Below, one piece after another: positions 8,876 to 39,782 of a stretch of 39,782 bases of DNA; the first letter of the stretch is position 1; each line of letters opens with the position of its first letter. The notes under the pieces were generated by a model. The model had not been told where the DNA came from. It was given only the letters and a program-made list of their open reading frames with translations, and did not search any database. Origin of the DNA: Planctomycetota bacterium (GTDB lineage Bacteria > Planctomycetota > MHYJ01 > JACQRL01 > SBBU01); the NCBI GenBank assembly GCA_016206485.1, contig JACQRL010000039.1:1-39782 (forward strand), given 5' to 3'. The translations under genes were made by a program, and so were the position numbers.

Positions 8876-8882
8876 TTTCCTT

Positions 8883-11671: not shown

Positions 11672-11750
11672 GACTTTCTTACAAGATAAAAGGAAGGAAT
11701 AAATTATCAAGTTCTTTAAACTGTGCCAAAGCAACATCGTTTAATATATA

Positions 11751-13103: not shown

Positions 13104-13163
13104 ACGACCCGCCGCGCCAAATATAAATTTTGCATATTTTTTTTGCAATCATATTATCGATTA

Positions 13164-16799: not shown

Positions 16800-17675
16800 C
16801 TATTTTGCTTTCCATGTTGTTAAGATCTCATCTATTGATTTCTCAACATCAACACCTTTAGCGCGGTAATTTTTCCTTATTTCTTTTATGAGACCTCTTT
16901 CTTTTTTTATAACTTCTTGGAGTTTTATCAATTCGTTTTTATATTCTATTGCGTTCATCTTTCCCAACGCCTTCACAGCGGCATTTTGAATTGCGACATT
17001 TGCATCCCAGATGTAATTTGCCACTACTTTCGCATGGTCTATAGATTTCATTGATCCAAGGGCTTTACAAGCACTTATTACTGCTACTCTTTCATCCAGG
17101 CTTGGGCGAGTGTTGAGAGGTTGTTCTAAAAATCTGGCGATTTCGCCGGCGCATTCTATTGAACCCCACCTATCAAGCAGCTTGATAATTTCTGAAAGTG
17201 TATTGACATTATATTCAACACGTAAAAGTTTTGCTATTTTAGACGCGTACTTTCTCGCATTCAAGTCTTCAAGCGCTATTACAACCAGAAGCTTGTCTGT
17301 TGCAGGATCATTAAGTAATTTTGCAACGTCATCCGTGTGTTTTGACGACTTGCATGCGCCCAAAAACCGCGCGGTAAGGCTTCTAACCTCCGGGTCTTTG
17401 TCTTCAAGCAATAAAGCTGCCTCATCTGCTTTGTCATTAGCGTTGATCAGCAGTAAGTGTAAAATAGAGTTTTTCTTTATAAGTGGGTCATCACTCTTTA
17501 GAGATCCAGCCAACTCCTCTTTAGACATTTTAGTAAAATGTGTATTACTGGACATATGACAACTGATGAGAAAGCCCAGTATGATGATGAGCGTATTAAA
17601 TGAAAAAACAAAAGAGATATGTTCAGTCTTTGAACAATTTACAAAATTATTTCTTTCCATCATAGAAGTAGTCAT
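16800..17675 (-). CDS. membrane-anchored HEAT-repeat protein
   Basis: 291-aa ORF with an N-terminal TM helix (FVFSFNTLIIILGFLISC). Repeats of about 31 aa follow, such as LLEDKDPEVRSLTARFLGACKSSKHTDDVAKLLND and WDANVAIQNAAVKALGKMNAIEYKNELIKL. Confidence 0.7.
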   Translation of the reverse strand: MTTSMMERNNFVNCSKTEHISFVFSFNTLIIILGFLISCHMSSNTHFTKMSKEELAGSLKSDDPLIKKNSILHLLLINANDKADEAALLLEDKDPEVRSLTARFLGACKSSKHTDDVAKLLNDPATDKLLVVIALEDLNARKYASKIAKLLRVEYNVNTLSEIIKLLDRWGSIECAGEIARFLEQPLNTRPSLDERVAVISACKALGSMKSIDHAKVVANYIWDANVAIQNAAVKALGKMNAIEYKNELIKLQEVIKKERGLIKEIRKNYRAKGVDVEKSIDEILTTWKAK

Positions 17676-18572: not shown

Positions 18573-19004
18573 ATGAATTTTAAAAGGATTGCTCTTATTC
18601 TGATACTCGCAGTTTCTATTTCTGTTATATGTTATACAAACTATAAAGATCTTTTAGACAAACATCCTTCGCCATGGGAATTGGCATATGCCCCGGACTA
18701 CCACCATGGGAAATTCGTATACATGAAAGCGAAAGTCATTTCGAAGGTTGGAAAGGGATATGTTGTTGAGGATCACGGCTACAGAATACATGTCGTAACG
18801 GAAGCGCAACTTAACCAGGGTGATTATGCGATGATTGTTGGAAGGTTTGACAAAGAGTGGAGGATTTATGCCCATGATATTGAGGTTGTACCGCTTGTTA
18901 CCCATAAGACTGTTATCAGTTATGTCTTGGCATTTTTGGTTGTTGTAGTTTTTGCCTCGCAGTTTTTCAGGGCGTTCAGGGTGGAAAAATGGCAGATATA
19001 TTAA
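18573..19004 (+). CDS. bitopic membrane protein with OB-fold-like central domain, function unknown
   Basis: ATG at 18573; the ORF-track TTG is at 18570. N- and C-terminal TM helices flank a beta-rich segment (GKFVYMKAKVISKVGKGYVVEDHGYRIHVV...GDYAMIVGRF). It overlaps the next gene by 16 nt. Confidence 0.5.
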   Translation: MNFKRIALILILAVSISVICYTNYKDLLDKHPSPWELAYAPDYHHGKFVYMKAKVISKVGKGYVVEDHGYRIHVVTEAQLNQGDYAMIVGRFDKEWRIYAHDIEVVPLVTHKTVISYVLAFLVVVVFASQFFRAFRVEKWQIY

Positions 19005-20152
19005 CGCATTATACTTCCGGCCGTCTCGCGGGCGTTGTGCTTGAGCCAAGAAAGGAGATCGCGCTCGTGGCAGGAGTCCTGATGCCGGATATTATTTCGA
19101 AATCAATGATGTTTATTTTTCAGTCGAAGCCGTTTTATTCTGCCTTCAGTCACTCCATTGTCGGAGCTGTTATGTACTCAGCCCTGTTCTGCGCGCTATT
19201 TGTGCGAAGGGAGACGCTAAACGTGTTCTTCCCTTTCATGGTGGTCGGCTATCTGATACATATTTTGTTTGATGCGTTTAAAGACTATCTTGGTTTCGGT
19301 GTTGTATATCCGTTTCTTCCTTTTAGTCAGGAGTTCATACAGCTGCCTTTTTACAATCCGTACAACTCTGTTTACCTTATACCTGCTGATATACTTGCTT
19401 TGTTAATAGTGATTATTGTAAGACAGAAGTTGTTCGGCGGCGAGCCGTCGCGCGCAAACTGGAGATTGTTTGTCGGAGATCTTTGGCAAAGTCTGGTGAA
19501 CGGCCTCGGCGCGATTAAAAGAGTAAATTTTGGCATGCTGGTTTGCGCCGCAATGTTTTTTTTCTTGGGGAGAATAAATAATGATGGAGACAAAAGCAAA
19601 TTCGACTGGATATATGAATATGGAGTTATGCCGAAGAAGTTTGATGGGCGCGAGTATTTTTTTGAGTGCTTGAATTACACAAGACAGCTGAAAGGAAATG
19701 ATTTTGAGGCATCTTATCGGGGCAGAGATATTCTCTTTTTGTCAGAAACGAGCATTCAAGGCGATTCAAGTGTTATTGCAAGGTACGATTATGAAAAAGA
19801 TGCCTTCAAACTTTTAGATTCATTTAGTCTGTCGACTGAGATGAAGCTGTTAATAATTTTAATGACCGTGCTTATATTCGCTGTCTCATGCTGTTCGAAT
19901 AATTCTCTTCTGCTCTTGACGAGATATCTTTTATTTCCATATCTGTGCCTTCTAGTCCTGGTTTATTTTTTTGGAACCGGTATGCATTATGGCGAACTCT
20001 CTTCAAATATTTTTACTGTGCTGTGCGCGAATACTGCGTTGTGGTTTGCTACAAATGGAGGCGGAAAAGAGGCGCTGATTGCTGCGTCAGCTGTTCTGGC
20101 AAACTCTCTCTTCAATATGTACGTGATCGTGTGGCCATATTTTATCCTCTGA
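18989..20152 (+). CDS. YdjM-like membrane-bound metal-dependent hydrolase domain fused to a long C-terminal membrane region
   Basis: 387-aa ORF. The N-terminal ~130 aa carry the ordered motifs ILTHYTSG, LMPDIISK, FSHSIVG and GYLIHILFDAF, as in the YdjM/LexA-binding inner-membrane hydrolase family. The C-terminal ~250 aa add a soluble segment and more TM helices. Confidence 0.55.
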   Translation: MADILTHYTSGRLAGVVLEPRKEIALVAGVLMPDIISKSMMFIFQSKPFYSAFSHSIVGAVMYSALFCALFVRRETLNVFFPFMVVGYLIHILFDAFKDYLGFGVVYPFLPFSQEFIQLPFYNPYNSVYLIPADILALLIVIIVRQKLFGGEPSRANWRLFVGDLWQSLVNGLGAIKRVNFGMLVCAAMFFFLGRINNDGDKSKFDWIYEYGVMPKKFDGREYFFECLNYTRQLKGNDFEASYRGRDILFLSETSIQGDSSVIARYDYEKDAFKLLDSFSLSTEMKLLIILMTVLIFAVSCCSNNSLLLLTRYLLFPYLCLLVLVYFFGTGMHYGELSSNIFTVLCANTALWFATNGGGKEALIAASAVLANSLFNMYVIVWPYFIL

Positions 20153-20357: not shown

Positions 20358-22052
20358 ATGAGAATGGGAGTTTTTTTATCTAAATACTTAGTAGTAACTC
20401 TGTGTGGTTTAGTATTTGATATTCAAATAACAGAGGATGACTACAACGATCTCGTAAGACAATTATCAGACAAAAATCCTACTATTAGAGGAAGAGTGTT
20501 TAATAAACTTGTTGGATGTTGGGAGGCAGATGACATACTTGATTTAATCAGTAGGTCTATAGAGTCTGCGAAGCAGGATGGCAACTCCTTTTTAACTGAA
20601 ATCCTATCACAGATTAAAACCTGTATCATTAATCGAAAGGAGTTGGGAAGCGAATTAGTTGAGATATTTACTGACAAAGTGGATGAAATGTGCAGCTGGA
20701 GTGAGGATTTTTTAGTATTATTTTTCACGAGGCAGATAAATCAGCACATGGGAGGCTTGGTAAAGGATACAAAGACATGCGAAGTGTTTGCAAAGTGGTT
20801 ATTTGGGCGCTTAAAGTCACATAGCGCTAAAAGGAACTTTATTGATGCCATAGGGGATAATTTTTTGGATAAATCACCACTCCAGATACCGAATGGAAAA
20901 GAGTTGCTGGTCAAGCTACTGAAAGACACAGATACAAAAGTCAAGGCCAGTGCTTTGGGAACACTTTATCGTATGGATGTTAGAGACCCTTACAAAGAGA
21001 TTGTTGATCTGACAAAAGATAGTGAGCCTATGATAAGACTTAGTTCAGCAAGGTACTTAGTGCGAGCAGATGCTGAGAAATTCGGCGATAAGTTAGCCGG
21101 ATTGCTGAATGATGAATTATTGTACATAAGAATGTTGGCGGTGGAAAAAATTGCTGAAAATGGATTGAAACAGTATTCAGGTCAGATTGCTGTGCTTCTC
21201 GATGAGCGATTATATACCGATTATAAACCTATAGAGAAAAAATTTGCGATTATTGGGGATATTGAAAAAATCTTTGGCGGTGTTAACGCTTTAAAAAAAA
21301 GCGCTATTGCCGCCCTTGGAACTTTGGGCTCTAAAGAATTTGTAAAAGAAGTAGGAAATTTTTTGAAGCACGACAACATTTCATTGAGGCTAGAGGCGAT
21401 GAGATCGCTTGCTAAATTAAGAGCCTTTGAATATATACCTGAAATAGGGAGTTTCCTTAAGCATAACGAGATCCAATTGAGGGTAGAGGCAATTAAATTT
21501 CTTGGCGAGTTAGGAGCTGTGGAATATATTGATGAGATGGTGATTATATTACAGTCGGAAAATCACTATGATATTCAACTCGAAGCGGTAAGGAGTCTGC
21601 ATTTGTTTGGAGCAAAGGAATATATAGAACAATATATAGATAGCACAAAGAAATTGGATACAGATTCTATTACGACCTTATTAACTATTTTAGGCGATGT
21701 CAAAGCCAGAGAATTCTCTAATTTTGCCGTGGAATGCTTGGCAGATGAGAAATGCAGGGTAAGAGCTATCAGGACATTAGGAGATATGGGTATTAAAAGA
21801 CATGCCAAAGATATTGCCATATATCTTAGAGATAGTAGTGCGGAAGTTAGGATAGCAACAATTGAAGAATTAGGATCGCTAGATGCAGTTGAATATACAA
21901 AAGAAATTGCTGAACTTGTAAGTGATGAAACTGTTGTTAGTTCTGGTTGGTTGCATAGTCCTCCCAAAATCGTTAAAGAATGCGCTTTGAAAGTGCTTAA
22001 AAAATGGAATGTCGATATAAAACAACTGCAGAAGGAAAATAAAACTAAATAG
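20358..22052 (+). CDS. HEAT-repeat (PBS-lyase-type) protein with N-terminal signal/anchor
   Basis: 564-aa ORF with a hydrophobic N-terminus (FLSKYLVVTLCGLVF). Many ~31-aa repeats follow, for example FLKHDNISLRLEAMRSLAKLRAFEYIPEIGSFLKHNEIQLRVEAIKFLGELGAVEYIDEM and LRDSSAEVRIATIEELGSLDAVEYTKEIAELV. Confidence 0.75.
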   Translation: MRMGVFLSKYLVVTLCGLVFDIQITEDDYNDLVRQLSDKNPTIRGRVFNKLVGCWEADDILDLISRSIESAKQDGNSFLTEILSQIKTCIINRKELGSELVEIFTDKVDEMCSWSEDFLVLFFTRQINQHMGGLVKDTKTCEVFAKWLFGRLKSHSAKRNFIDAIGDNFLDKSPLQIPNGKELLVKLLKDTDTKVKASALGTLYRMDVRDPYKEIVDLTKDSEPMIRLSSARYLVRADAEKFGDKLAGLLNDELLYIRMLAVEKIAENGLKQYSGQIAVLLDERLYTDYKPIEKKFAIIGDIEKIFGGVNALKKSAIAALGTLGSKEFVKEVGNFLKHDNISLRLEAMRSLAKLRAFEYIPEIGSFLKHNEIQLRVEAIKFLGELGAVEYIDEMVIILQSENHYDIQLEAVRSLHLFGAKEYIEQYIDSTKKLDTDSITTLLTILGDVKAREFSNFAVECLADEKCRVRAIRTLGDMGIKRHAKDIAIYLRDSSAEVRIATIEELGSLDAVEYTKEIAELVSDETVVSSGWLHSPPKIVKECALKVLKKWNVDIKQLQKENKTK

Positions 22053-22221: not shown

Positions 22222-22938
22222 TTAGAATCGCACCGACAGCAGATACTTTAGTTCATCTTCAACATCTTTTTGGTCAATGACGTAGCCTTTTACTTCGTTT
22301 GTAATGATGTTATCCAGAAGATTTTTTGTATAGACAAGGTAATTTTTCACATCTGTTTCTTTTATTCCGAATTGTTTTGAAAGTTCCTTATAGGTTGGAG
22401 ATATAGCGCTTCTTGCGTCGTAGTATGAACTGAAGACATCAAAATATACTTTCTTGTCCTGTTTATGGAGCACATCCTGCAATTCGCCTATAGAGCGTGT
22501 TATTACAGCTCTTGCCCATTCCTGATCAAAGTAATCAGATGGGTTTCTTGATTCATGCGAATCTGTCGGTTCATCGATAATTCCATCTGAGCTTATTGTA
22601 ACCGACCCGCCGCCCCGCTTCTGTCTCATCGAGTCTCTGCGCGAGTTGATCAGAAAATGTTTGAGAGTTGCTTTTATATATGTTCTGAACCTGCCCTTAT
22701 CCGGCGAAACGTTTTTAAGATAATCCTTTTCGAGAAACTTTGTGAAGTATTCCTGTGTAAGATCCTTGGCCTCCTCATTTGATTTATTCCAGAACATTCT
22801 GATGTATTTATATGCCGGCATCCAGTACATGGAAATCAACCTTCCGATCTGCTCTTTATAATCTTTTGTGTCCCTGTCTTTTGCATTAAGAACTACTCCC
22901 CAGATTGTATTAGGAAAGCCCCAGCGGTCTTCCGCCAT
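22222..22938 (-). CDS. ECF-type RNA polymerase sigma-70 family factor
   Basis: Region-2-like AKDLTQEYFTKFLEKDYL...FRTYIKATLKHFLINSRRD and region-4 HTH-like SPTYKELSKQFGIKETDVKNYL. The ATG at 22938 (MAEDRWGFP...) is preferred because it aligns with the start of the paralog at 39580. The ORF extends to an ATG at 23016, adding a hydrophobic 26 aa that is unlikely in a sigma factor. Confidence 0.72.
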   Translation of the reverse strand: MAEDRWGFPNTIWGVVLNAKDRDTKDYKEQIGRLISMYWMPAYKYIRMFWNKSNEEAKDLTQEYFTKFLEKDYLKNVSPDKGRFRTYIKATLKHFLINSRRDSMRQKRGGGSVTISSDGIIDEPTDSHESRNPSDYFDQEWARAVITRSIGELQDVLHKQDKKVYFDVFSSYYDARSAISPTYKELSKQFGIKETDVKNYLVYTKNLLDNIITNEVKGYVIDQKDVEDELKYLLSVRF

Positions 22939-23097
22939 CGTGGTATTATGCTTTTTTATCATAGGAGCTACTGCTTTCATTATAATATACATGACGATCG
23001 AAAGTCCAATTATCACGACACTTTGTCTGCTAACTCGAAGTAAAGATTATACGTAGGGCGCGTGCTCTTCCAAAGAGCATGGGTGATAACAGCAAGT

Positions 23098-25647
23098 CTA
23101 TTTGGTTTTTGTTAGGATTTTGATGAATATTAGAGCAAGAAATGGAATAGATCCTATGAAAAACAACAATTGTAAAGAGTTAGCTATCCTGCTGGCAGGT
23201 TTTGGGGCTGTTTTAGCGTAGACTAGTCCTGTATACTGACCTATTATATTGTGTTTTAAGAGAATGTCTCTGTGTTTTGACAGGAATGTTACTAGTTTAC
23301 TAGCAGGATTCGATGTTGCTTGTGTAGTGATGTAGCACAGAATGCCCCTTTGCCTGCTACTGGTACTTGTGCTACTGCCTGATTCTGGTGCGGGACTTCC
23401 TTGGGTTGGAGGTTCGGTCGGATCTGGTATCAGGATTCCTGGACTTGGGCTGGGTACATTTGGCTGCGCCAGCAATGTGACAGACACCATCGATGATTCA
23501 CCGCAAAGTTGGCTGTAAGCAGTCACGCCGAAGGTATAAACTTGCTCAATAAGATATTCTTCGATTGATGACTCTGAAAGCAAGGCTTGTGTTGTATTTG
23601 CAGGGAAAGTTGTAATGAGAAAAAATACCGGGATACCACCTACAAGCTTTCTTCCGTAAAGCCTGAATTCATTCTCATTATTTGAGTTGTCGTTCCAGGT
23701 CAGAAGAACTCCACTGCCTTCTACAAAGACAGCATTTAAATCTGATGGAGCGTTTATTGTGCAGGTTGGTGGAGGCGTCACGGCCGGCGTATCAACAGCT
23801 ATGTATGTCCCCGGACCCGGTACAGTTGATGCATAAGAAGACTCTCCAACTATATTTCTTGCCTTGATTCTGTAATAGTATCTTGTTGATGGCTGAACAG
23901 TATTGTCAGTGTATGTGATTATATTTGCAGGGATGTTGAATGTGGTTTTTGGCGAAAAGTTTTGGCTTGCGCTCCTTTCCAAAAGAAATTCATCCTCTAC
24001 TTCTGAGTTATCTCTCCAGGTCATAGTAACACGGGAAGACTGTACTGATGTTGAACGAAAGTTTGAAGGAGCTTTTGGAGGATCTCCTATCAAGCGAGAA
24101 TCATTTATTTTACAGACTTTAATATCTCCAGTATCTCTGTTGTCTTGAATAAAGACCAGTGTCTTCCAGCCGCCTATTTTCTCGACCTGTATTGGCAGCT
24201 GCTCTCCCGGACCGTCAGAGATCACGAGAGGATCATCTTCCCATATTCTTATCGGTTCTCCTGTGGGATTGCCGTCCTCCACTGCAATTGCAAGACACTC
24301 TATGTTTTTGTCTCCGTCGAAATTGTGCTCCCAGACAATCAGAATGAATAAATCAATACTGCTGGTCGAATCTACTGTAACTATGGAGTTTCTATTATCG
24401 CTCATAATACTGGCGTCATAACCAAGTTGAATTCCGTTTGTATTTCCATTTTCTGATAATTGCGGATCTCCACCTTGGGAAAAAAGCTGAAGCATTATAA
24501 AGTATCCGTCATCCGGGTTGTAGTTCTGTCTGTTGCTCCAAGTTACAACTGTCTGTCCACCCGGAGCAGAAGCTAGAGATGGTTCGACCTGTGCCCCGCT
24601 CGCATCGGATATCTGAAGTCCGTTAGGAGTTTGATCCCATACTATTACTCCGAATTGATTAATGCGTCTTGCATACAACTTGTTGTCCGGAGATTCCTCT
24701 CTAACGTATACGGCGACAACTTCACCAGAGAAGTCATCATATATTGCGACGTGATCTCTGTCTGTAATGTCATCAGTTAAATCTGTGTTGGATAAAATTA
24801 TCCCACCGTTGCCCCATACATATTCTCCGCCTTGTGGGATAGTTCCGTTTCTTGTTCGGAATTCGCAGACGATGTCCCAGTCATCATTTGAAAATCTCTC
24901 TGCAGTAATAAAGACTCCATCATGAGCAGTTATAATATTTGGTGAAATGACCTGATCGCCTCCAAAGTCTATCAAAACTCCTTCATCTCCGAAGAGTTTA
25001 TCAAGGTTGTTTGTCACTCTTTGCAGGTATACCTGACTTGCGTCCCTGTAGTCTTCACATACAATGTATGCCCCTCCTTCGCCATCAGGGATTGCTTTGA
25101 AGTTTATCTGGTCGCTATCGGCATCAAATATTGGGGCGAGGTTTGGGTCAAGAGGGCCAGATCCGCCATCAGCATTGATTAATGGAACTATTACTCCTTC
25201 ATCATCAACAATGAAAGCATAGATATTCCAGTTGTCCTCCTGAGTTGTTGTTATATTATGCTCGAAGAAAACAAAAGATCTGTTCCCTGCCGACGGAATA
25301 ACTTTTATATTTCTTAATGAGCCGTCTGAGGGAAGGTTGATTCCGATTTGTTCTCCAGCTGATCCGAACCTTGTCGTTGAGTCCAGATATAATCTTTGAA
25401 AAACCAGTCTCAAGTTGTCCCGAACGCAAACTCCTGCGAAGCCGTCAAGAACTCCTCCCCCTCTGTACACCGGGACCGCAGAAAAATAGTTTTCAGTAGA
25501 ATCGTCTGCAGCAATTACGATGTTGTTATCAGAGGGATTTGTGTGGAACTCTGCCTCTAAAACCAGGGGTAGCAATAAAACTGCCGCAAGTATCAGTTTC
25601 AGCCCATTTGACATGATGGCCGTGGTTGTTTTGTCTCGAGATTTCAT
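23098..25647 (-). CDS. giant secreted repeat protein B (W-x-D-x-R...IY repeats, 2x FN3-like, Pro/Ser stalk, Cys-motif C-terminal anchor)
   Basis: ATG at 25647 gives MKSRDK...LILAAVLLLPLVLEA, a signal peptide. The ORF-track start at 25677 is a TTG overlapping the upstream stop. FN3-like strings include VTMTWRDNSEVEDEFLLERS...YYYRIKARN and VLLTWNDNSNNENEFRLYGR. The C-terminus reads GILCYITTQATS...KHRD... followed by a terminal TM helix. Confidence 0.7.
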   Translation of the reverse strand: MKSRDKTTTAIMSNGLKLILAAVLLLPLVLEAEFHTNPSDNNIVIAADDSTENYFSAVPVYRGGGVLDGFAGVCVRDNLRLVFQRLYLDSTTRFGSAGEQIGINLPSDGSLRNIKVIPSAGNRSFVFFEHNITTTQEDNWNIYAFIVDDEGVIVPLINADGGSGPLDPNLAPIFDADSDQINFKAIPDGEGGAYIVCEDYRDASQVYLQRVTNNLDKLFGDEGVLIDFGGDQVISPNIITAHDGVFITAERFSNDDWDIVCEFRTRNGTIPQGGEYVWGNGGIILSNTDLTDDITDRDHVAIYDDFSGEVVAVYVREESPDNKLYARRINQFGVIVWDQTPNGLQISDASGAQVEPSLASAPGGQTVVTWSNRQNYNPDDGYFIMLQLFSQGGDPQLSENGNTNGIQLGYDASIMSDNRNSIVTVDSTSSIDLFILIVWEHNFDGDKNIECLAIAVEDGNPTGEPIRIWEDDPLVISDGPGEQLPIQVEKIGGWKTLVFIQDNRDTGDIKVCKINDSRLIGDPPKAPSNFRSTSVQSSRVTMTWRDNSEVEDEFLLERSASQNFSPKTTFNIPANIITYTDNTVQPSTRYYYRIKARNIVGESSYASTVPGPGTYIAVDTPAVTPPPTCTINAPSDLNAVFVEGSGVLLTWNDNSNNENEFRLYGRKLVGGIPVFFLITTFPANTTQALLSESSIEEYLIEQVYTFGVTAYSQLCGESSMVSVTLLAQPNVPSPSPGILIPDPTEPPTQGSPAPESGSSTSTSSRQRGILCYITTQATSNPASKLVTFLSKHRDILLKHNIIGQYTGLVYAKTAPKPASRIANSLQLLFFIGSIPFLALIFIKILTKTK

Positions 25648-25673
25648 ATATGATTCAGAGACCTCTTTTTTGA

Positions 25674-28202
25674 TCAATAGTTGGCTAAGAGCCGTTTAAT
25701 ATTGATAAAAAGAGAAACAATTAAAAATGTAATCAACGAGTATCTTGCGAAGCTGTCTTTGTAACCGTACTCAAACCAGATTGTTAAATAATAAACAATT
25801 TGTTGTACTGATTGGGAATAAATTGATGTGAAGAATGTGCCGGGAATAGTTGAATCAAAATATCTGTCTCTGCATTTTGTCATAAATATTACAGAGTTTG
25901 CGTTAACGCTCCCGGTTGTTCTGGTTGCGATGTAGCAGAGTCCCTCTTTTCTCACGCTGTTTTTTGTGCTTGATTTCGGTTGTGATTGTGGAGGCGCAGT
26001 CGGAGGTGGCGGGTCAGGAATAAAAATCGGAGATGTTTGTCCACTCATAAAAGCGGAGGAGGATGTATTAGATGAACCCGGTTCGCCGCTTCCTCCCTCA
26101 CCTTCGAGGGTTGTAGCGCTCGCGGGACCAATTGCTACGGATATAGAGATGCCCATCCTGTACCTTATTTTATATTTATATAGAGTTCGCTGTTGCAGAC
26201 CGGTATCTGTATAGCTTGATGCCGGATATGGAATTGTACCAACGAACTCAAAATTTCCACTTTCTCCAACAGCTCTTTTTATCTCTATCTGTGGCGGGGG
26301 AGGAAATGGATAAAGAGGATTGGTCCATTGAAGTCTTATTTGAGAACCTGATAGCGCAGTCGCGGTGAGATTAGAAGGAGGCAGTACTCCGGAACTAGGC
26401 GCTTGCCCGTTCAGTTCCCCCGGAATACCAACAGCAAGAGTCTCTGTATACTCAGAATGTGAATCTCGCGTGACTGATCCCCAGGCAGGGAGACTCGTTC
26501 TTGCATATAACCGTATTCTGTACATGTAGATACTGTCTGGAATGACTGTGCTGTCGTGAAACGGAACCGCGCTGTTCGGAATATCAGCTATTTGTATGTA
26601 TTGATTATTATTCGGATCAGAATTATATAAGCTCTTTCTTTCGATCTTAAAACCGGTGCTTATGATCCCCTGCACGCCTGATCCTCCTGAGCTGACAAGA
26701 GGTGATACCGTTGGGTTCCAGGAGATTTGTACTTCCAGGTATGTTGACTGAGGTTGGATCGCAGTTGGTATTTTATTCGGCTTTACATTTGTGCCATCAT
26801 CGGTCGCGACCCCTGTAATAACACTCTGTGTGTTCGAATAACCGACCCAAACGAGATCGTTGCCATACGGGAACACATATTCCAGACTTTGATTTCCGGT
26901 GTTGCCTACCTGAAAACCGGGATCTCCATTTCCTTCATAGAACCTGCTGGTTCCGTTAAAGGCGCTCAGGAGCTGTCCATAAATCTTTTTATCACCTCCT
27001 GCCCTGAGGTCTTCCCAGAGTACGAATATTGCCTGATCCGGATTTACAAGAACCTTCGGCCTGGTTTGATTTCCTTCCGCATAACAAACAGTAGTGTCCC
27101 ACTCTTTGGATCCTGTTATTTTCTTTATCTTTGCGGCATTGATGTCATGAGTTGTTGATCCCTGCAGTATTGTTGACCAGCTGATTATTAATTCTCCCGT
27201 ATTCAGGTTTGTAAAATCAGGGGTGAAATTTTCTACTGAGCTGTCGGATACATTAATTCCATAGCCCGGAAACCTCACAGTTGCTGATTGTACCTGAAAG
27301 CTGTTGAAGTAAACATCGTTGTTTCCATCCTGATTACTCAGACAAACAAAATGCGCTACATTACCTGAGGCGTCAGAATCTGTCAGTACAGAATAATCCG
27401 ACTCTGTTGATTGATTTCCCAGTGTTCCAAATACGGTTATTCCATTAGTGTAGCCCTGCGCGGTATTGATTGTTGATGTAAGGTCATCTGTTTTAAAGAT
27501 GTTCATTTTTATATCGCCTCCCTCCTGCCAGCTGACCAGAACAAGTGTATTTGCAGACCACGCAAGTGGTTGTATGGGATTGATCTTCCAATTGCTTACC
27601 TGTCTTGCAGGATTGATCGTAACAATGCCCGGAGGATTTAATATATTGCCGTCCGGTTTGATAATCCCAAGCTTCAAAGTTATATTTTGCGTGATATTAT
27701 CCTGTTCTCCATACAATACTACAGACAGATACTGACTGCTTTTTAGAACTGCGGTGACCTTTGGTTCGATCAATGTGGCGCTTGAAGATGACGCAATTAA
27801 GACACCAGTCCCCCATTCTTTGACATAATCTTTATTTACTCTGTTTGCATAAATATTTGAGGTTCCGTTGCGATTATCCTGACAGACTACGACTAGTTTT
27901 GGGTCTTGTGTTGACGGCGGGACATATGCAAAATCGGGATTCCATTGATCGGAGGTAGGGTGGTTAATTATAGGAGATGCCGAAGAAACAAGCCCTCCTT
28001 CATATATACTTTTTGCCATCACATCCTTTTGTGAAAGCGTGTTGTATACCACGTCGTACTGACTGCCTGTCAGTGTCGGATTTCGTTTAGCAACCATATT
28101 TTCTGCGGATGCCGCGACTTCTTTGTCGATTCCATTCCATTCCTGGACATTTGCCTGAAACAGCAGCAGGGAAATTCCAGTGATGAAGCCAGGTAATTTC
28201 AT
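25674..28202 (-). CDS. giant secreted repeat protein A (paralogous architecture to 23098..25647)
   Basis: 842-aa ORF with ATG start and a signal-peptide-like N-terminus (MKLPGFITGISLLLFQANV). Repeats include CQDNRNGTSNIYANRV, WEDLRAGGDKKIYGQLL and SNQDGNNDVYFNSF. FN3-like strings include IRLQWTNP...YKYKIRYRMG. The C-terminus reads EGLCYIATRTTGS...KCRDRYF...PG... followed by a TM helix. Confidence 0.7.
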   Translation of the reverse strand: MKLPGFITGISLLLFQANVQEWNGIDKEVAASAENMVAKRNPTLTGSQYDVVYNTLSQKDVMAKSIYEGGLVSSASPIINHPTSDQWNPDFAYVPPSTQDPKLVVVCQDNRNGTSNIYANRVNKDYVKEWGTGVLIASSSSATLIEPKVTAVLKSSQYLSVVLYGEQDNITQNITLKLGIIKPDGNILNPPGIVTINPARQVSNWKINPIQPLAWSANTLVLVSWQEGGDIKMNIFKTDDLTSTINTAQGYTNGITVFGTLGNQSTESDYSVLTDSDASGNVAHFVCLSNQDGNNDVYFNSFQVQSATVRFPGYGINVSDSSVENFTPDFTNLNTGELIISWSTILQGSTTHDINAAKIKKITGSKEWDTTVCYAEGNQTRPKVLVNPDQAIFVLWEDLRAGGDKKIYGQLLSAFNGTSRFYEGNGDPGFQVGNTGNQSLEYVFPYGNDLVWVGYSNTQSVITGVATDDGTNVKPNKIPTAIQPQSTYLEVQISWNPTVSPLVSSGGSGVQGIISTGFKIERKSLYNSDPNNNQYIQIADIPNSAVPFHDSTVIPDSIYMYRIRLYARTSLPAWGSVTRDSHSEYTETLAVGIPGELNGQAPSSGVLPPSNLTATALSGSQIRLQWTNPLYPFPPPPQIEIKRAVGESGNFEFVGTIPYPASSYTDTGLQQRTLYKYKIRYRMGISISVAIGPASATTLEGEGGSGEPGSSNTSSSAFMSGQTSPIFIPDPPPPTAPPQSQPKSSTKNSVRKEGLCYIATRTTGSVNANSVIFMTKCRDRYFDSTIPGTFFTSIYSQSVQQIVYYLTIWFEYGYKDSFARYSLITFLIVSLFINIKRLLANY

Positions 28203-28244: not shown

Positions 28245-28260
28245 TGGCAACAATCTTGCT
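28245..28260 (+). promoter_or_regulatory. candidate sigma-54 (-24/-12) promoter
   Basis: TGGCAA-CAATC-TTGCT matches the TGGCAC-N5-TTGCW consensus with exact GG-to-GC spacing of 12 nt. It is intergenic and points toward the crotonase start at 28419. No enhancer-binding protein or rpoN is present in the window. Confidence 0.35.
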
Positions 28261-28310
28261 TGGCACAAACTACACTGATTAAATCTCGATTACACCGATT
28301 TGATTTGCAT

Positions 28311-28380
28311 TTTCCATATTCTATGTTCTACGCTCCACGATCTACGAACCATGATTGCTGGACATATTCCACGTTTTCCA
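28311..28380. repeat. heptanucleotide tandem array (CGTRGAA family, reverse orientation)
   Basis: In-phase heptads: TTCCATA TTCTATG TTCTACG CTCCACG ATCTACG AACCATG. More degenerate units follow, including TCCACGT and TTTCCAT. Located in the leader between the candidate sigma-54 site and the crotonase ATG. Confidence 0.7.
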
Positions 28381-28418
28381 TAATATGCATTCTCAACACT
28401 AATTTGAGAGGAGTTTTT

Positions 28419-29210
28419 ATGACACTGGTTGAATATGAAGTGAGAAAAAAAGTCGCATGGCTGACCTTAAATGCCCCGCCCGCCAATACTTATTCATATG
28501 AGATGATGCAGGATTTTGATAAAGGAGTTCTGCAGGCAAGGTTTGATAAAAATATAAATGTAATCGTTATTACCGGCAAGGGAGACAAGTTCTTTTCAGC
28601 AGGCGCGGATATCTCAATGCTTGCTACAGCCGACCCCGCATTTAAATATTATTTCTGCTTGCATGCAAACGAAACGCTCAACAGACTTGAACATACCGCA
28701 AAACTGACGATAGCTGCGATCAATGGTCATTGTGTAGGCGGCGGACTTGAAATCGCTATGGCTGCAGATTTAAGGATTGCAAAAAAAGATGCAGGTCAGC
28801 TTGGGCTGCCGGAAGTTACGCTTGGAGTTCTCCCCGGAACAGGAGGCACCCAGAGACTTTCAAGGATGGTCGGCAAATCAAAAGCGATTGAGCTTATGAC
28901 CACAGGAAAGTTGCTTAACTTTGAAGAGGGTGTTCAGTTAGGCATTGTTAATAAAATTTTCGACTCGGCGAACTTTGAAGAAAAAATTCAGCAGTTTGCT
29001 TCAGAGTTTTGCGCCCCGAACAAGGCAGCAAAGGCAGTCGGTTTGATCAAGAGGTCAGTGCAGAGCGGATGGGAGGTCGGATTTTCTGATGGGCTTGCAA
29101 TCGAAAGAGAATGTCAGCAGCAACTGTTTACCAGTGAGGACGCAAAAAATGGGATTCAAAATTGGATACAGACTAAAGGGAAGGGAAAGGTGGAATTTAA
29201 AGGATCCTAA
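28419..29210 (+). CDS. enoyl-CoA hydratase/isomerase (crotonase) family protein
   Basis: ATG at 28419 is preceded by GAGAGGAG. The ORF-track TTG at 28260 adds a non-protein-like N-terminus that covers the repeat array. Crotonase motifs present: FFSAGADISML and INGHCVGGGLEIAMAADLRIA. Confidence 0.88.
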   Translation: MTLVEYEVRKKVAWLTLNAPPANTYSYEMMQDFDKGVLQARFDKNINVIVITGKGDKFFSAGADISMLATADPAFKYYFCLHANETLNRLEHTAKLTIAAINGHCVGGGLEIAMAADLRIAKKDAGQLGLPEVTLGVLPGTGGTQRLSRMVGKSKAIELMTTGKLLNFEEGVQLGIVNKIFDSANFEEKIQQFASEFCAPNKAAKAVGLIKRSVQSGWEVGFSDGLAIERECQQQLFTSEDAKNGIQNWIQTKGKGKVEFKGS

Positions 29211-32859: not shown

Positions 32860-35175
32860 CTAGTTAAATATCTTCTCTTTATATTTCTCCGCTTCTTTTT
32901 GCAGTTCGTTCAGACTTGAATAAAACCAGTCAACTCTGTGTTCTTTGCCAGTGATTTTGTTTAACGACATGTAGGCGATGAGCCTTGTCCAGGGATCAGG
33001 ATCTGCCAGAAAATTCAGGAGAATCTTCTTAACTTCAAGAGATTCAAAGTTGCTTAAAACTTTTACAAGGGCGCGATAGGTATGGATTCCACATTTTTCT
33101 TTTATAACTGCTGAGTTGCGTAGCTGTGCAAGAATGTATTTCTCAATCTCCGGAGAAGAACGATTTATAAAGAGTTCAATTATTGTCTCCATGATATGAG
33201 TTGTTGATCCAAGTGCGGCTTTTACCAGCTGTTGTTTCTGTTCAGAAGATGGAATTTGGTTAGAAGAGTTGGAAGAGGGAATGCCCGCCAGGCTTTTGAG
33301 CATGGTTTTATTAGCCATCTCTACAAGCTGCGGGTCAGAGAGCTGTCCTGAGGTTCCCAGATAGAAAATCGCAAGCGCTGCAAGATGCTGTTCATCCGCG
33401 TTTTCAGATAGATAAAGTTCCGAGATCTTCTTAAGTTTTGAGTCAATGACATTAATTATCTTTTCGTTCTTTATATCGAGCATTTTAATGTATCTTATGA
33501 CTCTGTCGATCAGGTGGACAGGCAGAGAAAGGTCATTTAATACCGTCATTGAAAGTTCAGGAAACGAATCGGGATAATTTCTGAAGTAAGTGAAAAGAGC
33601 TGCAAATAAAACCTGATCATCTTCAAACGCCGATAAAAGCAGCTGTTCGAGAAAAGCCTTCCCGTATTTTCCAAGTCCCGGAAGCGTTTCAATAAGAAGT
33701 ATCCTGACAGAAGGCTCAAAATCGCTTAAGGCATAGCGAACAGGTCTTGCGTTTCTGATTGGGCTTGGTTTTTGAAGATAACTTCGTTTGCTTTTGCTTA
33801 GGATATACTTTGCTGTTTCAAGCTTTTCCATGTATTTTTTCATGCTGGTTTTTTCTCCGCTTAGAGCCAATGACATTTCAAGAAGCTGGCGTAAAATTTT
33901 AAGTTTGGCATTGGGCACATAACTGTCAGCTGGGTTTTCAAATTTAGGAGCGGGAGAGTCAATAATCCACTTCAGTTTCAGAATGTTTTTCTTCATTTCA
34001 TTGCACATGTCAACGAACTTTTTGGCAGGATCAGAGGAGTCTTTATCAAAACATTTTAGGGAGGCCTTCATGAGTACAAGCACTTTTTCAAAATCTCCGG
34101 TAGTTCTTGCGTCATCCAGCATCTCGACGAGAATGCCAAATGCCTTTTTGTGTGACAGTTTTGCCAGGGAGTTGATAAACGCTATTTGAAATACGGTATC
34201 AGGTTCATTTCTAACCTTGTCAGTCAAAAATTGCGGGAGTTCCTGAAATCCTGACATTGTCAGAAAATACAATGCGCGCGCCCTTTCGATGGCATCTTTG
34301 CTGTTTTTTAATACCTCGAAGAGGTCCTGCATCGGATCATATTTTTGAATTGTGCCGAGATAATAAACCGCGTTTCTTCTGACCCTTTTACTCGGATCTG
34401 AGATCAGTCTTCTGACGTGCAGGTAGAGATCTCTTTCAGGAAATAAGCTGAGTCCGTACGCAAATCTGGAGGTCAGAGTAAAAGGATAGGATTTTGTGAG
34501 CTCGGATGAGATTATGCGGCTTATCATAGTGCTGTATGGATCGCCAAGATTAAGGAAGTTTGGAACTTCTTCCGCGACGCCCATATAAGCGGTCGCCATC
34601 TTGAAAAACTCACGCAGTTTGTCCTGAAATTCCTTTATAGTAATGACCAGATTTGAGGAAGGAAGCCCGAGAAGCAGCAGAGAAAATATCTCTTCGTTAT
34701 CGAATGTTCTGTTGCTGTGAAAATATTTTAGGAGCATTCGGTTAAAACATTTCAGATTAGATTCCAGGAGTGTCTGTTCTGAATCAGAATAGGAGGTATG
34801 CGAAATAGCAGAGGCTACAGGGTCAGATTCGAGCAGGACTCCTTCTATCCAGGGATGATGGCTTGAAAAGTCTTTTGTGGTGATTCCGCATTCACTGATG
34901 AAATCATAGTTGATGGGAGGTGCTGGAATGTTAGCAGGTGGAGGGGTCATCTTTTTCTTATCCGCTGGAGGCTTCTTTGGTAAAGGTCCAGTCTGCTGGC
35001 CACCTTCTTCTTTGTCAGCAAGATTGCCTCCTCCGGTTTGAATTATCCTAAGCTCATCTGTGACCGTAATCATGGGTTGGAAATTTGTTATAGAATCGAA
35101 AGGGTCTCCCGGCGGAAGCAGGATATCCATATCCATCAGGATGATTAAAGAGAATATAGAAAAAATCTTCTTCAT
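32860..35175 (-). CDS. secreted HEAT-like repeat protein, paralog 1 of a divergent pair
   Basis: 771-aa ORF with a signal-like N-terminus, then DMDILLPPGDP..ITNFQP and a Pro-rich segment. HEAT-like units follow (SDPSKRVRRNAVYYLGTIQKYDPMQDLFEVLKNS; LADPDPWTRLIAYMSLNKITGKEH). Alignable end to end with 36145..38481. Confidence 0.65.
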   Translation of the reverse strand: MKKIFSIFSLIILMDMDILLPPGDPFDSITNFQPMITVTDELRIIQTGGGNLADKEEGGQQTGPLPKKPPADKKKMTPPPANIPAPPINYDFISECGITTKDFSSHHPWIEGVLLESDPVASAISHTSYSDSEQTLLESNLKCFNRMLLKYFHSNRTFDNEEIFSLLLLGLPSSNLVITIKEFQDKLREFFKMATAYMGVAEEVPNFLNLGDPYSTMISRIISSELTKSYPFTLTSRFAYGLSLFPERDLYLHVRRLISDPSKRVRRNAVYYLGTIQKYDPMQDLFEVLKNSKDAIERARALYFLTMSGFQELPQFLTDKVRNEPDTVFQIAFINSLAKLSHKKAFGILVEMLDDARTTGDFEKVLVLMKASLKCFDKDSSDPAKKFVDMCNEMKKNILKLKWIIDSPAPKFENPADSYVPNAKLKILRQLLEMSLALSGEKTSMKKYMEKLETAKYILSKSKRSYLQKPSPIRNARPVRYALSDFEPSVRILLIETLPGLGKYGKAFLEQLLLSAFEDDQVLFAALFTYFRNYPDSFPELSMTVLNDLSLPVHLIDRVIRYIKMLDIKNEKIINVIDSKLKKISELYLSENADEQHLAALAIFYLGTSGQLSDPQLVEMANKTMLKSLAGIPSSNSSNQIPSSEQKQQLVKAALGSTTHIMETIIELFINRSSPEIEKYILAQLRNSAVIKEKCGIHTYRALVKVLSNFESLEVKKILLNFLADPDPWTRLIAYMSLNKITGKEHRVDWFYSSLNELQKEAEKYKEKIFN

Positions 35176-35348: not shown

Positions 35349-35939
35349 TTAAAAGTGAGGGCTGATGGTTGGCAGAAGCTTTTTTACCGCCTTTCCTCTG
35401 TGGCTGATTTTGTTTTTTTCCTCTGGAGATAATTGAGCGGTTGTCTTTCCGAGCTCTTTGACATAAAAGATTGGATCATATCCAAAGCCATTTGTACCCT
35501 CGGATTTTGAGTTTATGTATCCATAGCATCTGTCACTGCTGACTGCAAAAATCTTTCCTTTGTAACCAAAAATACATACTGCTATGTAGTATGTCTTTCG
35601 CTTTTCAAACGGGATTCCTTCCAATTTTTTCAGCAAAAGCTCATTGTTATCCTGAGATGCAGCATTTGCACCTGCAAATCTTGCGGAGCGCACTCCGGGG
35701 GCGCCTTTTAGAAACTCGACGCATATCCCGGAATCTTCTGCGAATACTGGATAGGTAACCAGACTGGAATAAAACACGCACTTACTTGCGGCGTTTTCAA
35801 AGAATGTTTTTCCATTTTCAGGGGCGATGTTTTTTATCCCCGCTTCATCAAGTCCGACCAGATCCGCGTTGATTTGTGCAAACAGTGATTTGAACTCGCG
35901 CAGCTTTCCCTTGTTACCAGTCGCAATAAGCAGTCTCAT
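35349..35939 (-). CDS. rdgB: RdgB/HAM1 family non-canonical purine NTP pyrophosphatase
   Basis: 196-aa ORF with LLIATGNKGKLREF, GTNGFGYDPIF and ISHRGKA motifs. Confidence 0.92.
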   Translation of the reverse strand: MRLLIATGNKGKLREFKSLFAQINADLVGLDEAGIKNIAPENGKTFFENAASKCVFYSSLVTYPVFAEDSGICVEFLKGAPGVRSARFAGANAASQDNNELLLKKLEGIPFEKRKTYYIAVCIFGYKGKIFAVSSDRCYGYINSKSEGTNGFGYDPIFYVKELGKTTAQLSPEEKNKISHRGKAVKKLLPTISPHF

Positions 35940-36144
35940 AAATTGTAGAGACTATGACATAGCCCGTAGAAGACAAGTAAATTTGAGTGGAACACGACGC
36001 CATTTTGTGCCCGGTACCATCTCTTATCTGTGGAATTCGCCCAGATCTGTGCAATCAGTGAAAGAGTTTTATCAAAGGACCATTATATATGGTGGATATT
36101 ATAAGTATTTTATCTGGTGCTGGGTAAATGTTGTTTATATTATT

Positions 36145-38481
36145 ATGGGGTTGAAATTGACAGTGCTTAAGATCTGGCGGTTGAAGTATCTAGCCTTCAT
36201 CTCTCTTTTATCTTTTTGTTTTTGTCTTGATATGGATATTGATATTCCTCCCGGGACTCCAACAGAGATAATCTCAAATTTCCAGCCTTCAGTGACAATT
36301 ACCACGGATATGAAACTCATTGAAACACAATCAGGCACACCTACACAACCTAATGATGGCGAGAAAGTTGAGAGAAGAGGAACCGAAGTAAAAAAACAGA
36401 TTGTGCTTCCTCCTAAGGCGCCGCCTCCTGTCAGCGCGGGATTTTTTGAGGCGACAGGCATCACCACGATAGATTTCCCCGGACACTATCCTTGGGCGTC
36501 AACACTTAAATCAGGACTGGATCCGATAGCGGAAGATCTTGCTATTTCAGGTTATACACAGGAAGAAAAGATTAAAAGTTGGAAGCCAAAACTCATTCCA
36601 TACAGCGATCCGAAGAACGCAAAATATGAAGCGTATTTAAAATGTTTTCAGAGAATTCTGATCAGATATTTTCACCTCAACCGTACTTTAGAAAATGAAG
36701 ATATTTTTTACTTTATGCTTTTCGGTGATCCTCCGGCATCTTTTGCAGCATCCATTAATGAGGTGAAGAAGGATCTGAAAGAGTACTGCGGCAAAATAAT
36801 GAGCTATCTTGATCCGGAAACAAAACAGCCTGTCATTCCGGGAATGCCGGATGATTACAGTCTCATGATGTATACAATTGTTTTATCAGAGCTTGTATAT
36901 TATTATCCTTTCACAGTTAACTCTCCGTTTGCTCCGGGACTCGATCACTTTGCTTCGGAAGAAATTTACCCTCACCTTAGATCAATGCTCAAAAGCACTA
37001 ATAAACGTGTAATGAGAAACGCTGTGTATTATCTCGGAACAATGCAGAAGTATGATGCCCTTGCAGAACTGTTCAATATCCTTCAAAACAGTTCTGATAA
37101 AGTTGCACGCGCGAGATCTCTGTATTTTCTCACTGCATCAAGCTATCCGGAACTCGCATCATACCTAATAAGCCAGCTTGATTCTGAAAAAGATCCTGTA
37201 TTTGAAGTTGCTTTTCTAAATGCGCTTGGAAAGCTCGGGGATAAAAAGGCATTTCCGGGGCTATGCAAGAAAATAATTTCTATGGCTTCTGCCTACGATT
37301 ACGAAAAGTTGATTGCTGCTGTCAAGGCATGCGCCAGATGTGTTGACAAGCGTGACAAGGAAACTCTTAAACAGCTCGCCCAGCAGATTTTAAAGATTCA
37401 TTCTTCTCTTGAAGGCGCAGCATGGGCAGGTGAACCGGAGACCCCCGACCTTGCTGTTCCTGCTGATAGTTATAGGGGTGACGCAAGGCGAAAAACACTG
37501 AAGGAAGTTTTAGAAATCTCGCTCGCCGCCTGCGGTGAGAAGCAGGCTTTGGGAGATCTCCCTTCAAAATTCGAAGAAATCATCAACAGACTCGAGACTC
37601 CTAAAAAAAGAGCCGTCAATGCAGGCGCTGTCGGAGGCTCTCCTCCTATGGCATTGGGAAGTTTTGATGTCCTCAACAGATTATTTCTTGTTGAGGTTCT
37701 GCCGGAGATGGGGAAGACAGGGAAAATTCTCCTTGAAAGACTCCTTCTCAGCGGTTTTGAACATGATAATGTCCTGTTTACCGCGCTGAACACCTACTAT
37801 CGATATTATCCCGATGACTTTGAAAAACTCGCATTGCAGATACTGATTCTTAACAAAGAGCTTCCTGTGCCTCTGGTTGATAAAGCTCTTAAGTATATGT
37901 ACTTTACAGATCTGAAAGATGATAAGACCAAAAAAAATCTTGATAAGATTCTGAATATGCTGGTTATGGAGTATGGTCCTCAGCAGGACCTGTCTTCAAA
38001 GCACCTGTCTACACTTGCGGTGTTTTATTTGGGACTTGGAAAGAAGTTGAAAGAGAAGATTTTGTCATCGATAATTGACAGTGAGCTCAGGGAGCAGAAA
38101 CCCGAACCGGTAACAAAGGAACAGGATCCGCCTCTTCTTGGCTTAAAAATAGAACCGACAAGCAGTCTGATAAGAATCTGTATTGAGATGCTGGGAAGAA
38201 TGAAGACTGTAGATGCTGAAAAAGCGCTTCTCAAGCTCGCTAAAAAAATAACGGATATCGAAAATAAAAGGATCCTTGCCAAAGCTCTTGGAAATTTCAC
38301 GTCCAAAGAAGTTAAAGCTGAATTGATCGAAATGCTTTCTGATAAAGACAGCTGGACACGTCTTATTGCCTATCTTTCATTGAGCAGAATTACCAGAAAG
38401 GAACACAAAATCGACTGGTTCTATACAGATCTTGATAAACTAAAACCTGAAATTGAAAAATATAAAACTGTCCTAAATTAA
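36145..38481 (+). CDS. secreted HEAT-like repeat protein, paralog 2 of a divergent pair
   Basis: ATG at 36145 gives MGLKLTVLKIWRLKYLAFISLLSFCFC, signal-like, followed by LDMDIDIPPGTP..ISNFQP as in the paralog. The ORF-track start at 35827 would overlap rdgB antisense and encodes low-quality sequence. HEAT-like units include KSTNKRVMRNAVYYLGTMQKYDALAELFNILQNS and LSDKDSWTRLIAYLSLSRITRKEH. Confidence 0.65.
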   Translation: MGLKLTVLKIWRLKYLAFISLLSFCFCLDMDIDIPPGTPTEIISNFQPSVTITTDMKLIETQSGTPTQPNDGEKVERRGTEVKKQIVLPPKAPPPVSAGFFEATGITTIDFPGHYPWASTLKSGLDPIAEDLAISGYTQEEKIKSWKPKLIPYSDPKNAKYEAYLKCFQRILIRYFHLNRTLENEDIFYFMLFGDPPASFAASINEVKKDLKEYCGKIMSYLDPETKQPVIPGMPDDYSLMMYTIVLSELVYYYPFTVNSPFAPGLDHFASEEIYPHLRSMLKSTNKRVMRNAVYYLGTMQKYDALAELFNILQNSSDKVARARSLYFLTASSYPELASYLISQLDSEKDPVFEVAFLNALGKLGDKKAFPGLCKKIISMASAYDYEKLIAAVKACARCVDKRDKETLKQLAQQILKIHSSLEGAAWAGEPETPDLAVPADSYRGDARRKTLKEVLEISLAACGEKQALGDLPSKFEEIINRLETPKKRAVNAGAVGGSPPMALGSFDVLNRLFLVEVLPEMGKTGKILLERLLLSGFEHDNVLFTALNTYYRYYPDDFEKLALQILILNKELPVPLVDKALKYMYFTDLKDDKTKKNLDKILNMLVMEYGPQQDLSSKHLSTLAVFYLGLGKKLKEKILSSIIDSELREQKPEPVTKEQDPPLLGLKIEPTSSLIRICIEMLGRMKTVDAEKALLKLAKKITDIENKRILAKALGNFTSKEVKAELIEMLSDKDSWTRLIAYLSLSRITRKEHKIDWFYTDLDKLKPEIEKYKTVLN

Positions 38482-39579: not shown

Positions 39580-39782
39580 ATGGCAAGACGTGATACTACG
39601 ATAGGAGGGGAAGCATGGGATTTCCCCAGCACCATCTGGAGTATTGTCCTTAATGCTAAGAATAAAACCACAGCAGAATATCAGAAATCTTTAAACAAAC
39701 TTGTTTCGATGTATTGGAAGCCTGTTTATCGCTATATACGGATCGCATGGGACAGATCAAATGAGGATTCAAAAGACCTGAC
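39580..39782 (+). CDS. ECF-type sigma factor paralog (5' partial, runs off the window)
   Basis: Not in the ORF track because it has no stop within the window. The ATG at 39580 encodes MARRDTTIGGEAWDFPSTIWSIVLNAKNKTTAEYQKSLNKLVSMYWKPVYRYIRIAWDRSNEDSKDL. By hand count, 30 of 55 positions are identical to the N-terminus of 22222..22938. Confidence 0.65.
   Translation, partial: MARRDTTIGGEAWDFPSTIWSIVLNAKNKTTAEYQKSLNKLVSMYWKPVYRYIRIAWDRSNEDSKDL

Follow-up and report, generated by a model that had tools for sequence, protein, structure and literature searches.

Tandem paralogous planctomycete proteins with a predicted divergent β-propeller, encoded beside a kinase-type ECF sigma factor

The complete 39,782-bp contig JACQRL010000039.1 (hereafter, the window), which belongs to a metagenome-assembled genome (MAG) of an uncultured "Planctomycetes bacterium," encodes two adjacent secreted proteins, here called A and B, followed by a sigma factor of the extracytoplasmic function (ECF) type. 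The reading that we prefer, and hold with moderate confidence, takes A and B to be tandem paralogues specific to this lineage, which would be displayed on the cell envelope as binding proteins, beside a sigma factor of a kinase-associated clade. The locus is a new combination of known domain types, unusual but essentially ordinary, and not a new kind of system. An initial annotation of the same DNA had described it as a candidate undescribed cell-surface module of two giant secreted proteins with a dedicated sigma factor. Its observations were confirmed, and its interpretation was upheld in part; neither the new module nor the dedicated sigma factor stood; the word giant also does not suit proteins of 842–849 aa.

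The repeat region of A and B

The N-terminal repeat region of both proteins is predicted to be a divergent β-propeller, apparently of about eight blades. A word-indexed search with residues 1–500 of A against 5.8 billion proteins returned A itself and one distant match, P0002, which consists of eight clean 54-aa repeats; these are recognized by NCBIfam only, as Pfam finds no repeat family in P0002. A hidden Markov model (HMM) of the repeat, derived at first from P0002 and then rebuilt from 1689 repeat instances in 163 relatives, has the consensus TANGVAVCTAAGDQENPQIVSDGAGGAIIAWEDYRSGNYDIYAQRIDASGTVLW. The tandem signature W/C-x-[DEQ]-x-[RG]...[DN]-[IV]-[YF], spaced at ~55–65 aa in the initial annotation, corresponds to the portion ...GGAIIAWEDYRSGNYDIYAQRID... 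of this consensus and is the core of the 54-aa family blade.

In a six-frame translation of the window, the repeat HMM matches A (full-sequence E 5e-20) and B (4e-27) and no other open reading frame (ORF). Four repeats were located in A, at residues 99–130, 253–299, 315–368, and 371–414 (best E 1.6e-11), and seven in the N-terminal region of B (best single repeat E 5.5e-12); the FN3 region of B contains two additional weak matches (E about 0.004 and 0.3). In addition, the propeller region of A is collinear with relatives that have a single propeller of eight repeats.

The family to which these repeats belong is large. A phmmer search with A against 1.84 billion cluster representatives yielded 1407 relatives at E ≤ 1e-3, each representing a cluster at 50% identity, and 236 at E ≤ 1e-10, yet at E ≤ 1e-30 only A itself was retrieved, i.e., A has no orthologue among them. 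The search with full-length B gave the same picture, again with no orthologue. The relatives carry either 8 or about 16 repeats. Among 68 relatives scanned for domain content, 65 match the NCBIfam model TIGR04275 ("beta_prop_Msarc, beta-propeller repeat protein") at E ≤ 1e-3. P0018 and P0019, which A finds at E 4e-28 and 4e-25, score 129 and 118 bits on this model, respectively. A sorting domain of the type IX secretion system (T9SS) is present in 25 of the 68, and a CFI box in none. The propeller therefore belongs to a curated repeat family, with no pointer to a specific enzyme. At the domain level the locus can no longer be called undescribed, since the repeats join TIGR04275 transitively, and the C-terminal Cys motif discussed below weakly matches CFI_box_CTERM.

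Pfam and PDB sequence searches gave no significant match in the N-terminal ~480 residues of A or B, and a PDB profile search with the repeat region gave none. The AlphaFold2 (AF2) model of residues 25–520 of B (predicted template modeling score, pTM, 0.73; mean predicted local distance difference test, pLDDT, 68) is all-beta and contains 31 strands, or roughly eight four-stranded blades. The propeller region in the AF2 model of A is all-beta as well (pLDDT 60–89). A Foldseek search of the PDB with the B model retrieved β-propellers, namely, GH43 enzymes, sialidase-like proteins, PL24/PL25 lyases, and peptidase propellers. The β-propeller fold guessed in the initial annotation is thus favored jointly by the B model, by Foldseek, and by repeat homology, and a full-length match to a characterized adhesin or enzyme family was found neither in Pfam and NCBIfam nor in the PDB.

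FN3-like modules, linker, and C-terminal anchor

The C-terminal halves of A and B are collinear over about 300 residues (26% identity; BLASTP E 2e-11), and the tandem paralogy that had been proposed is supported. When the modules were scanned alone, one module in each protein exceeded the PF00041 gathering score of 25 bits (Table 1). The assignment of two FN3-like modules per protein is reasonable, the other module of each being assigned by paralogy only. The modules are followed by linkers of biased composition and by C-terminal regions that match NF041770 (CFI_box_CTERM) at 22.0 bits in A (E 1e-4, profile positions 1–50) and 23.2 bits in B (E 4.5e-5, positions 1–54). The pentapeptides CYIAT of A (residue 756 of 842) and CYITT of B (residue 771 of 849) both align at position 1 of this profile.

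Each protein has a signal-like hydrophobic segment at its N-terminus, distinct in B and less pronounced in A; the only other strongly hydrophobic stretch covers the final ~25 residues, with few residues beyond it. The terminal helix of B has a hydropathy of 2.5, that of A is the hydropathy peak of the protein, and helices at residues 799–813 and 817–841 are present in the AF2 model of A. From such an arrangement, a C-terminal transmembrane (TM) helix is predicted to tether a large external domain. The T9SS sorting domain Por_Secre_tail is absent from A and B. No relative was found with the same domain order, that is, propeller, two FN3 modules, linker, and CFI-box-like TM anchor, and a literature search returned no papers on the CFI-box C-terminal domain, CFIATAA, or TIGR04275. 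The order given in the initial annotation (signal peptide, repeats, two FN3-like modules, Pro/Ser/Thr stalk, and Cys-motif anchor) withstood this analysis; like its author, we recognized neither a catalytic domain nor an anti-sigma factor.

Gene layout

As had been annotated, three co-directional genes occupy the minus strand. The stop codon of A (25674–25676) overlaps by 4 nt with the alternative TTG start of B or, if B begins at the ATG chosen by NCBI, precedes it by 26 nt. A scan of the A/B junction detected no terminator-like element, and hence A and B are likely co-transcribed. The longest ORF of the sigma factor (22222–23016) starts with GTG and encodes 264 aa; the gap between the stop of B and the sigma gene is 81 nt for this start, 135 nt for the NCBI ATG at 22962, and 159 nt for an ATG at 22938. 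The gap contains a short hairpin and a promoter-like match (Table 1). In the promoter and terminator scan, the counts of matches did not exceed shuffled expectation, and the RNA fold of the gap is unremarkable (z -0.31).

Horizontal acquisition of the locus as an island was considered and rejected, as the G+C content over 22–28 kb (0.41–0.445) equals that of the rest of the contig. Neither A nor P0167, the closest sigma paralogue, had a record in an exact-sequence look-up of contigs. Upstream of A, the TTG-started ORF of an enoyl-CoA hydratase, 28260–29210(+), is probably over-extended, because its ECH_1 domain starts at residue 62; the intergenic region between A and the hydratase gene would then measure about 200 nt.

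Table 1. Coordinates of the genes, protein regions, and intergenic region discussed in the text (positions in the window).
Feature	Position	Strand	Description
Gene A, MBI4242701.1	25674..28202	-	842 aa, ATG start
A propeller, residues ~85-470	26793..27950	-	Predicted; degenerate TIGR04275-related repeats; repeat HMM, collinear alignment, phmmer, AF2
A FN3-like module 1, residues ~490-595	26418..26735	-	No Pfam match; aligns to the Pfam-supported FN3 module of B
A FN3 module 2, residues ~605-695	26118..26390	-	PF00041, 27.3 bits (residues ~608-684)
A linker, residues ~696-755	25938..26117	-	Gly/Ser-rich, then Pro/Ser/Thr-rich; 44% Pro/Ser/Thr
A C-terminal region, residues 756-842	25677..25937	-	CYIAT, CFI-box-CTERM-like segment, predicted terminal TM helix 817-841
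Gene B, MBI4242700.1	23098..25647	-	849 aa from the NCBI ATG; alternative TTG start at 25677; domain order as in A
B propeller, residues ~45-515	24103..25515	-	Seven repeat-HMM matches, AF2, Foldseek; about eight blades predicted
B FN3 module 1, residues ~526-610	23818..24072	-	PF00041, 31.1 bits (residues ~526-606 of the 849-aa form)
B FN3-like module 2, residues ~630-725	23473..23760	-	No Pfam match; aligns to the Pfam-supported FN3 module of A
B linker, residues ~726-770	23338..23472	-	48% Pro/Ser/Thr
B C-terminal region, residues 771-849	23101..23337	-	CYITT, CFI-box-CTERM-like segment, predicted terminal TM helix 821-848
B-sigma intergenic region	22963..23097	-	Short hairpin without U-tract; sigma-70-like TTGGAA-16-TATAAT match
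ECF-type sigma factor, MBI4242699.1	22222..22962	-	246 aa from the NCBI ATG; kinase-associated clade
Truncated sigma paralogue	39580..39782	+	Cut by the contig end

The sigma factor and its family

The sigma factor matches TIGR02937 (sigma70-ECF) at 48.2 bits, above the cut-off of 42.9, over residues 58–232 of the 264-aa ORF, and Sigma70_r2 at 24.8 bits (threshold 24). Closest to it, at 42–58% identity, are five other proteins of the same MAG, with accessions in the MBI4242–MBI4245 range. The second copy noted at the right edge of the window is real and belongs to the same family, so that with this truncated copy included, the MAG contains at least seven paralogues. The claim that the second copy sits next to other secreted proteins has weak support: the gene beside it, 38478–39404(-), is divergently oriented and encodes a Peptidase_MA_2/DUF1570 protein with a signal-like N-terminus.

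With one genome considered per species, relatives of the sigma factor were found at more than 590 loci, and some planctomycete MAGs contain many copies. We surveyed the 80 best of these loci (40 planctomycete and 40 other), using six-frame motif and HMM scans, for an ORF with the catalytic-loop motif of Hanks kinases within 400 nt of the sigma gene. Such an ORF adjoins the sigma gene at 58 loci and at 51 of them is directly downstream and co-directional; Pfam confirms Pkinase in the sigma-adjacent genes. Kinase adjacency was observed for 25/40 planctomycete loci, where the kinases are typically 800–1000 aa long and are often fused to TPR, and for 33/40 other loci, with kinases of about 330–400 aa. 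No adjacent kinase was found at the remaining 15 of the 40 planctomycete loci. The same-genome paralogue P0169 (locus L002) adjoins a kinase-TPR gene; its neighborhood and that of another same-genome paralogue, P0168, were taken from short Logan contigs of about 2.5 kb. A lineage-specific synteny was seen in Acidobacteriota, in which the glutamyl-tRNA reductase gene is conserved upstream of the sigma–kinase pair at six loci (L016, L019–L021, L036, and L042).

No anti-sigma domain was detected in the genes neighboring the sigma gene. The pairing of the family with Hanks kinases explains this absence (PMC7826278), as kinase-linked ECF groups are reported to lack anti-sigma factors (PMC7826278, PMC8999054, PMC13147305). 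The kinase-associated groups are ECF43, ECF59–62, ECF217, and ECF283 (PMC7826278, PMC8999054). Membership in ECF43 in the strict sense was rejected. In that group the DAED motif of region sigma2.2 is lost and replaced by STTA in EcfP, with the consensus QTTA and a phosphorylated Thr (PMC8999054, PMC13147305), whereas the corresponding region of the sigma factor studied here is EEAKDLTQE, with acidic residues kept across the family alignment.

Relation of the sigma factor to A and B

The strongest of the alternative explanations is close to that of the initial annotation: the sigma factor would specifically control A and B, and cassettes of a sigma factor plus a surface propeller would recur across the paralogues. 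ECF sigma factors commonly regulate adjoining genes, and the three genes run in the same direction at close spacing. Secreted genes of the propeller type adjoin further family members at five loci (L001, L005, L024, L003, and L027). We nevertheless consider such a dedicated module unlikely. The existence of at least seven paralogues in the MAG and the pairing of the family with Hanks kinases both argue against a sigma factor dedicated to A and B, and no orthologous A/B pair that would show conservation of the sigma adjacency was found in the databases searched. The non-kinase neighbors of the family are heterogeneous, including glutamyl-tRNA reductase, TPR proteins, a glycosyltransferase, a peroxiredoxin, and regulators. 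The upstream regions of A, the sigma gene, and the second sigma copy have no 7-mer in common, nor is any 7-mer common to at least three of six upstream regions (A, B, both sigma copies, and two paralogues). Finally, the sigma gene lies downstream of A and B with a promoter-like site of its own, such matches being no more frequent than in shuffled sequences.

The propeller-type neighbors at the five loci are of several kinds. At L001, an RCC1-like gene lies upstream of P0168 in the same genome as A and B; a strong hairpin terminator at 400–496 of this locus (GCAGGTCAGG...CCTGACCTGC followed by a T-run) separates the two genes, which also speaks against a dedicated module. The closest analogue of the arrangement in the window is L005, from a groundwater planctomycete MAG, in which tandem secreted delta-60/SBBP-like paralogues are divergent from a sigma gene that is followed by a kinase-TPR gene (6358–13374). 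At L024 (6445–12046), two sigma paralogues flank a kinase-TPR gene, and after the second comes the gene of a secreted propeller-like protein of 466 aa with a weak PDIAV_lipo match and a repeat-HMM match at E 2e-13. The neighbor at L003 is an FG-GAP protein and that at L027 is BNR-like. At a further locus, L061 (6259–10125), the sigma-adjacent kinase itself carries TPR, a PD40 propeller, and a GH114 domain; hence propellers also occur as sensor domains of kinases in the sigma–kinase system.

The repeat HMM has matches in 5 of the 40 planctomycete loci, 3 of them within 2.5 kb of the sigma gene (binomial p about 0.10). The concentration of propellers beside sigma genes is therefore not significant and constitutes a hint, not a result. 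Of the recurring sigma-plus-surface-protein arrangement suggested earlier, the propeller neighbors of a few paralogues stand, and statistical backing does not. It is doubtful that the sigma factor drives A and B, and its adjacency to them indicates at most a loose regulon link, not a dedicated module. A broader scheme, which is speculative and to which we assign a small chance, is that in some planctomycete lineages each kinase-type ECF paralogue would be tied to its own fast-evolving secreted propeller protein or proteins; A and B might then be the regulon of an orphan copy, and the CFI-box-like tail might be a sorting or anchoring signal that replaces the T9SS tail.

Proposed role of A and B

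In the reading of A and B as envelope-displayed binding proteins, both would be exported through the N-terminal Sec-type signal and held in the cytoplasmic membrane by the C-terminal TM helix that follows the CFI-box-like segment, this anchor standing where relatives from other phyla often use a T9SS sorting domain. The propeller, with its about eight blades, would be kept at a distance from the membrane by the two FN3 modules and the extended Pro/Ser/Thr linker. The residues W-E-D-x-R...D-I-Y recur in every blade and are hence read as structural, not catalytic. Judging from these blade residues, non-catalytic binding of a ligand, either a glycan or a protein, is the most likely activity of the propeller. 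Control of the sigma factor most likely falls to a Hanks kinase whose gene lies elsewhere, and the 135-nt gap that follows B probably contains a separate promoter for the sigma gene.

It is improbable that the propellers are envelope-tethered glycan-active enzymes (hydrolase, lyase, or sialidase-like) and not binding modules. The top Foldseek matches, GH43 arabinanases, sialidase-like proteins, and PL24/PL25 ulvan lyases, have E-values of about 1e-6, B has a weak match to Pfam Glyco_hydro_43 (E 0.14), and a GH30-like gene is situated elsewhere in the window. However, with TM-scores of at most 0.5 and identity of about 10%, only the generic propeller fold is common to these structures and the B model, and the blades number 5 to 7 in the matched enzymes and about 8 in A and B. 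The presence of the conserved residues in every blade is typical of structural motifs, and Pfam, NCBIfam, and PDB sequence searches returned no significant family match. That A and B act as an extracytoplasmic sensor of the adjacent sigma factor or as an anti-sigma substitute is highly improbable: each has one membrane span and a large external domain, and neither an anti-sigma factor nor a kinase is encoded nearby, but the about 1 to 7 cytoplasmic residues predicted after the TM helix are too few to bind a sigma factor, and the usual regulator of the family is a Hanks kinase.

Several observations weigh against the interpretation of A and B as anchored binding proteins beside a kinase-controlled sigma factor. 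Neither A nor B matches the TIGR04275 model (cut-off 85 bits) at E ≤ 0.1, and hence their link to that family is transitive. The CFI-box scores of 22–23 bits are well under the curated cut-off of 40, and the signal peptide of A is weak on the basis of hydropathy. With a pLDDT of 49, the AF2 model of full-length A is poor, and its confidence beyond the propeller is too low to support the FN3 and anchor folds structurally. The best Foldseek matches are enzymes, which leaves room for catalysis. On the side of regulation, no kinase is encoded on the 39.8-kb contig, and the secreted propeller genes beside a few other sigma paralogues leave room for a real link between sigma factors and surface proteins.

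Other genes of the window

Four proteins with HEAT or PBS-lyase-HEAT-like repeats are encoded on the contig, at 16800–17675(-), 20358–22052(+), 32860–35175(-), and 35827–38481(+), and one of these genes converges on the sigma gene. For the last of the four, an 884-aa protein, the start as listed overlaps the RdgB/HAM1 gene, 35349–35939(-), by about 110 nt, and translation probably begins further downstream. At a distance of about 2 kb past the sigma gene, 18989–20152(+) encodes a multi-pass membrane protein of 387 aa whose N-terminus carries a YdjM domain. A small nucleotidyltransferase-substrate-binding or HepT-like protein, 8883–9245(-), may be a component of a toxin–antitoxin system.

Comparison with known systems

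None of the leads described here overturns current understanding, and the nearest counterparts of the locus are four known groups of proteins. One is the TIGR04275-type propeller family, which is large (the 1407 clusters mentioned above) and has neither a known function nor a solved structure. A and B have in common with it a blade of ~54 aa, the core W-E-D-x-R-x-G-x-x-D-I-Y, sets of eight repeats, and N-terminal secretion, and they differ in that their repeats are too degenerate for the model. A second difference is in the C-terminal parts, as a T9SS sorting or FlgD-Ig domain is the usual C-terminal end of the relatives (25/68), whereas A and B end in the FN3 modules, linker, and CFI-box-like TM anchor. 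Another group comprises the SBBP, delta-60, and PD40 (TolB-type) propellers, which are likewise secreted and likewise have a short repeated blade with a strand of the D-I-Y type. Weak matches to TolB and delta-60 were each seen in 2 of the 68 relatives; A and B have no direct match to these models, and the likeness extends no further than the type of blade.

The sigma factor resembles the ECF groups associated with Ser/Thr kinases, to which it is likened here by their published descriptions. It has the sigma2 and sigma4 regions, it lacks an anti-sigma factor, its family has a downstream kinase, and the family is likewise expanded in Planctomycetota (PMC7826278, PMC8999054). The copy in the window differs from these groups in having no kinase on its contig, and from ECF43 in that its sigma2.2 region stays acidic (PMC8999054, PMC13147305). 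Given that about a third of the planctomycete copies lack an adjacent kinase, the question arises how such orphan copies are controlled.

With NF041770, A and B have in common the motif C-[FY]-I-[AT]-T at profile position 1, the location at the extreme C-terminus, and a hydrophobic end helix, and they differ in their subthreshold scores. The CFI-box-like segment of A and B is placed after a classic stalk, i.e., at the expected site of a sorting or anchoring signal. A planctomycete variant of the propeller with another anchor suggests that this module has been reused with different anchors across phyla.

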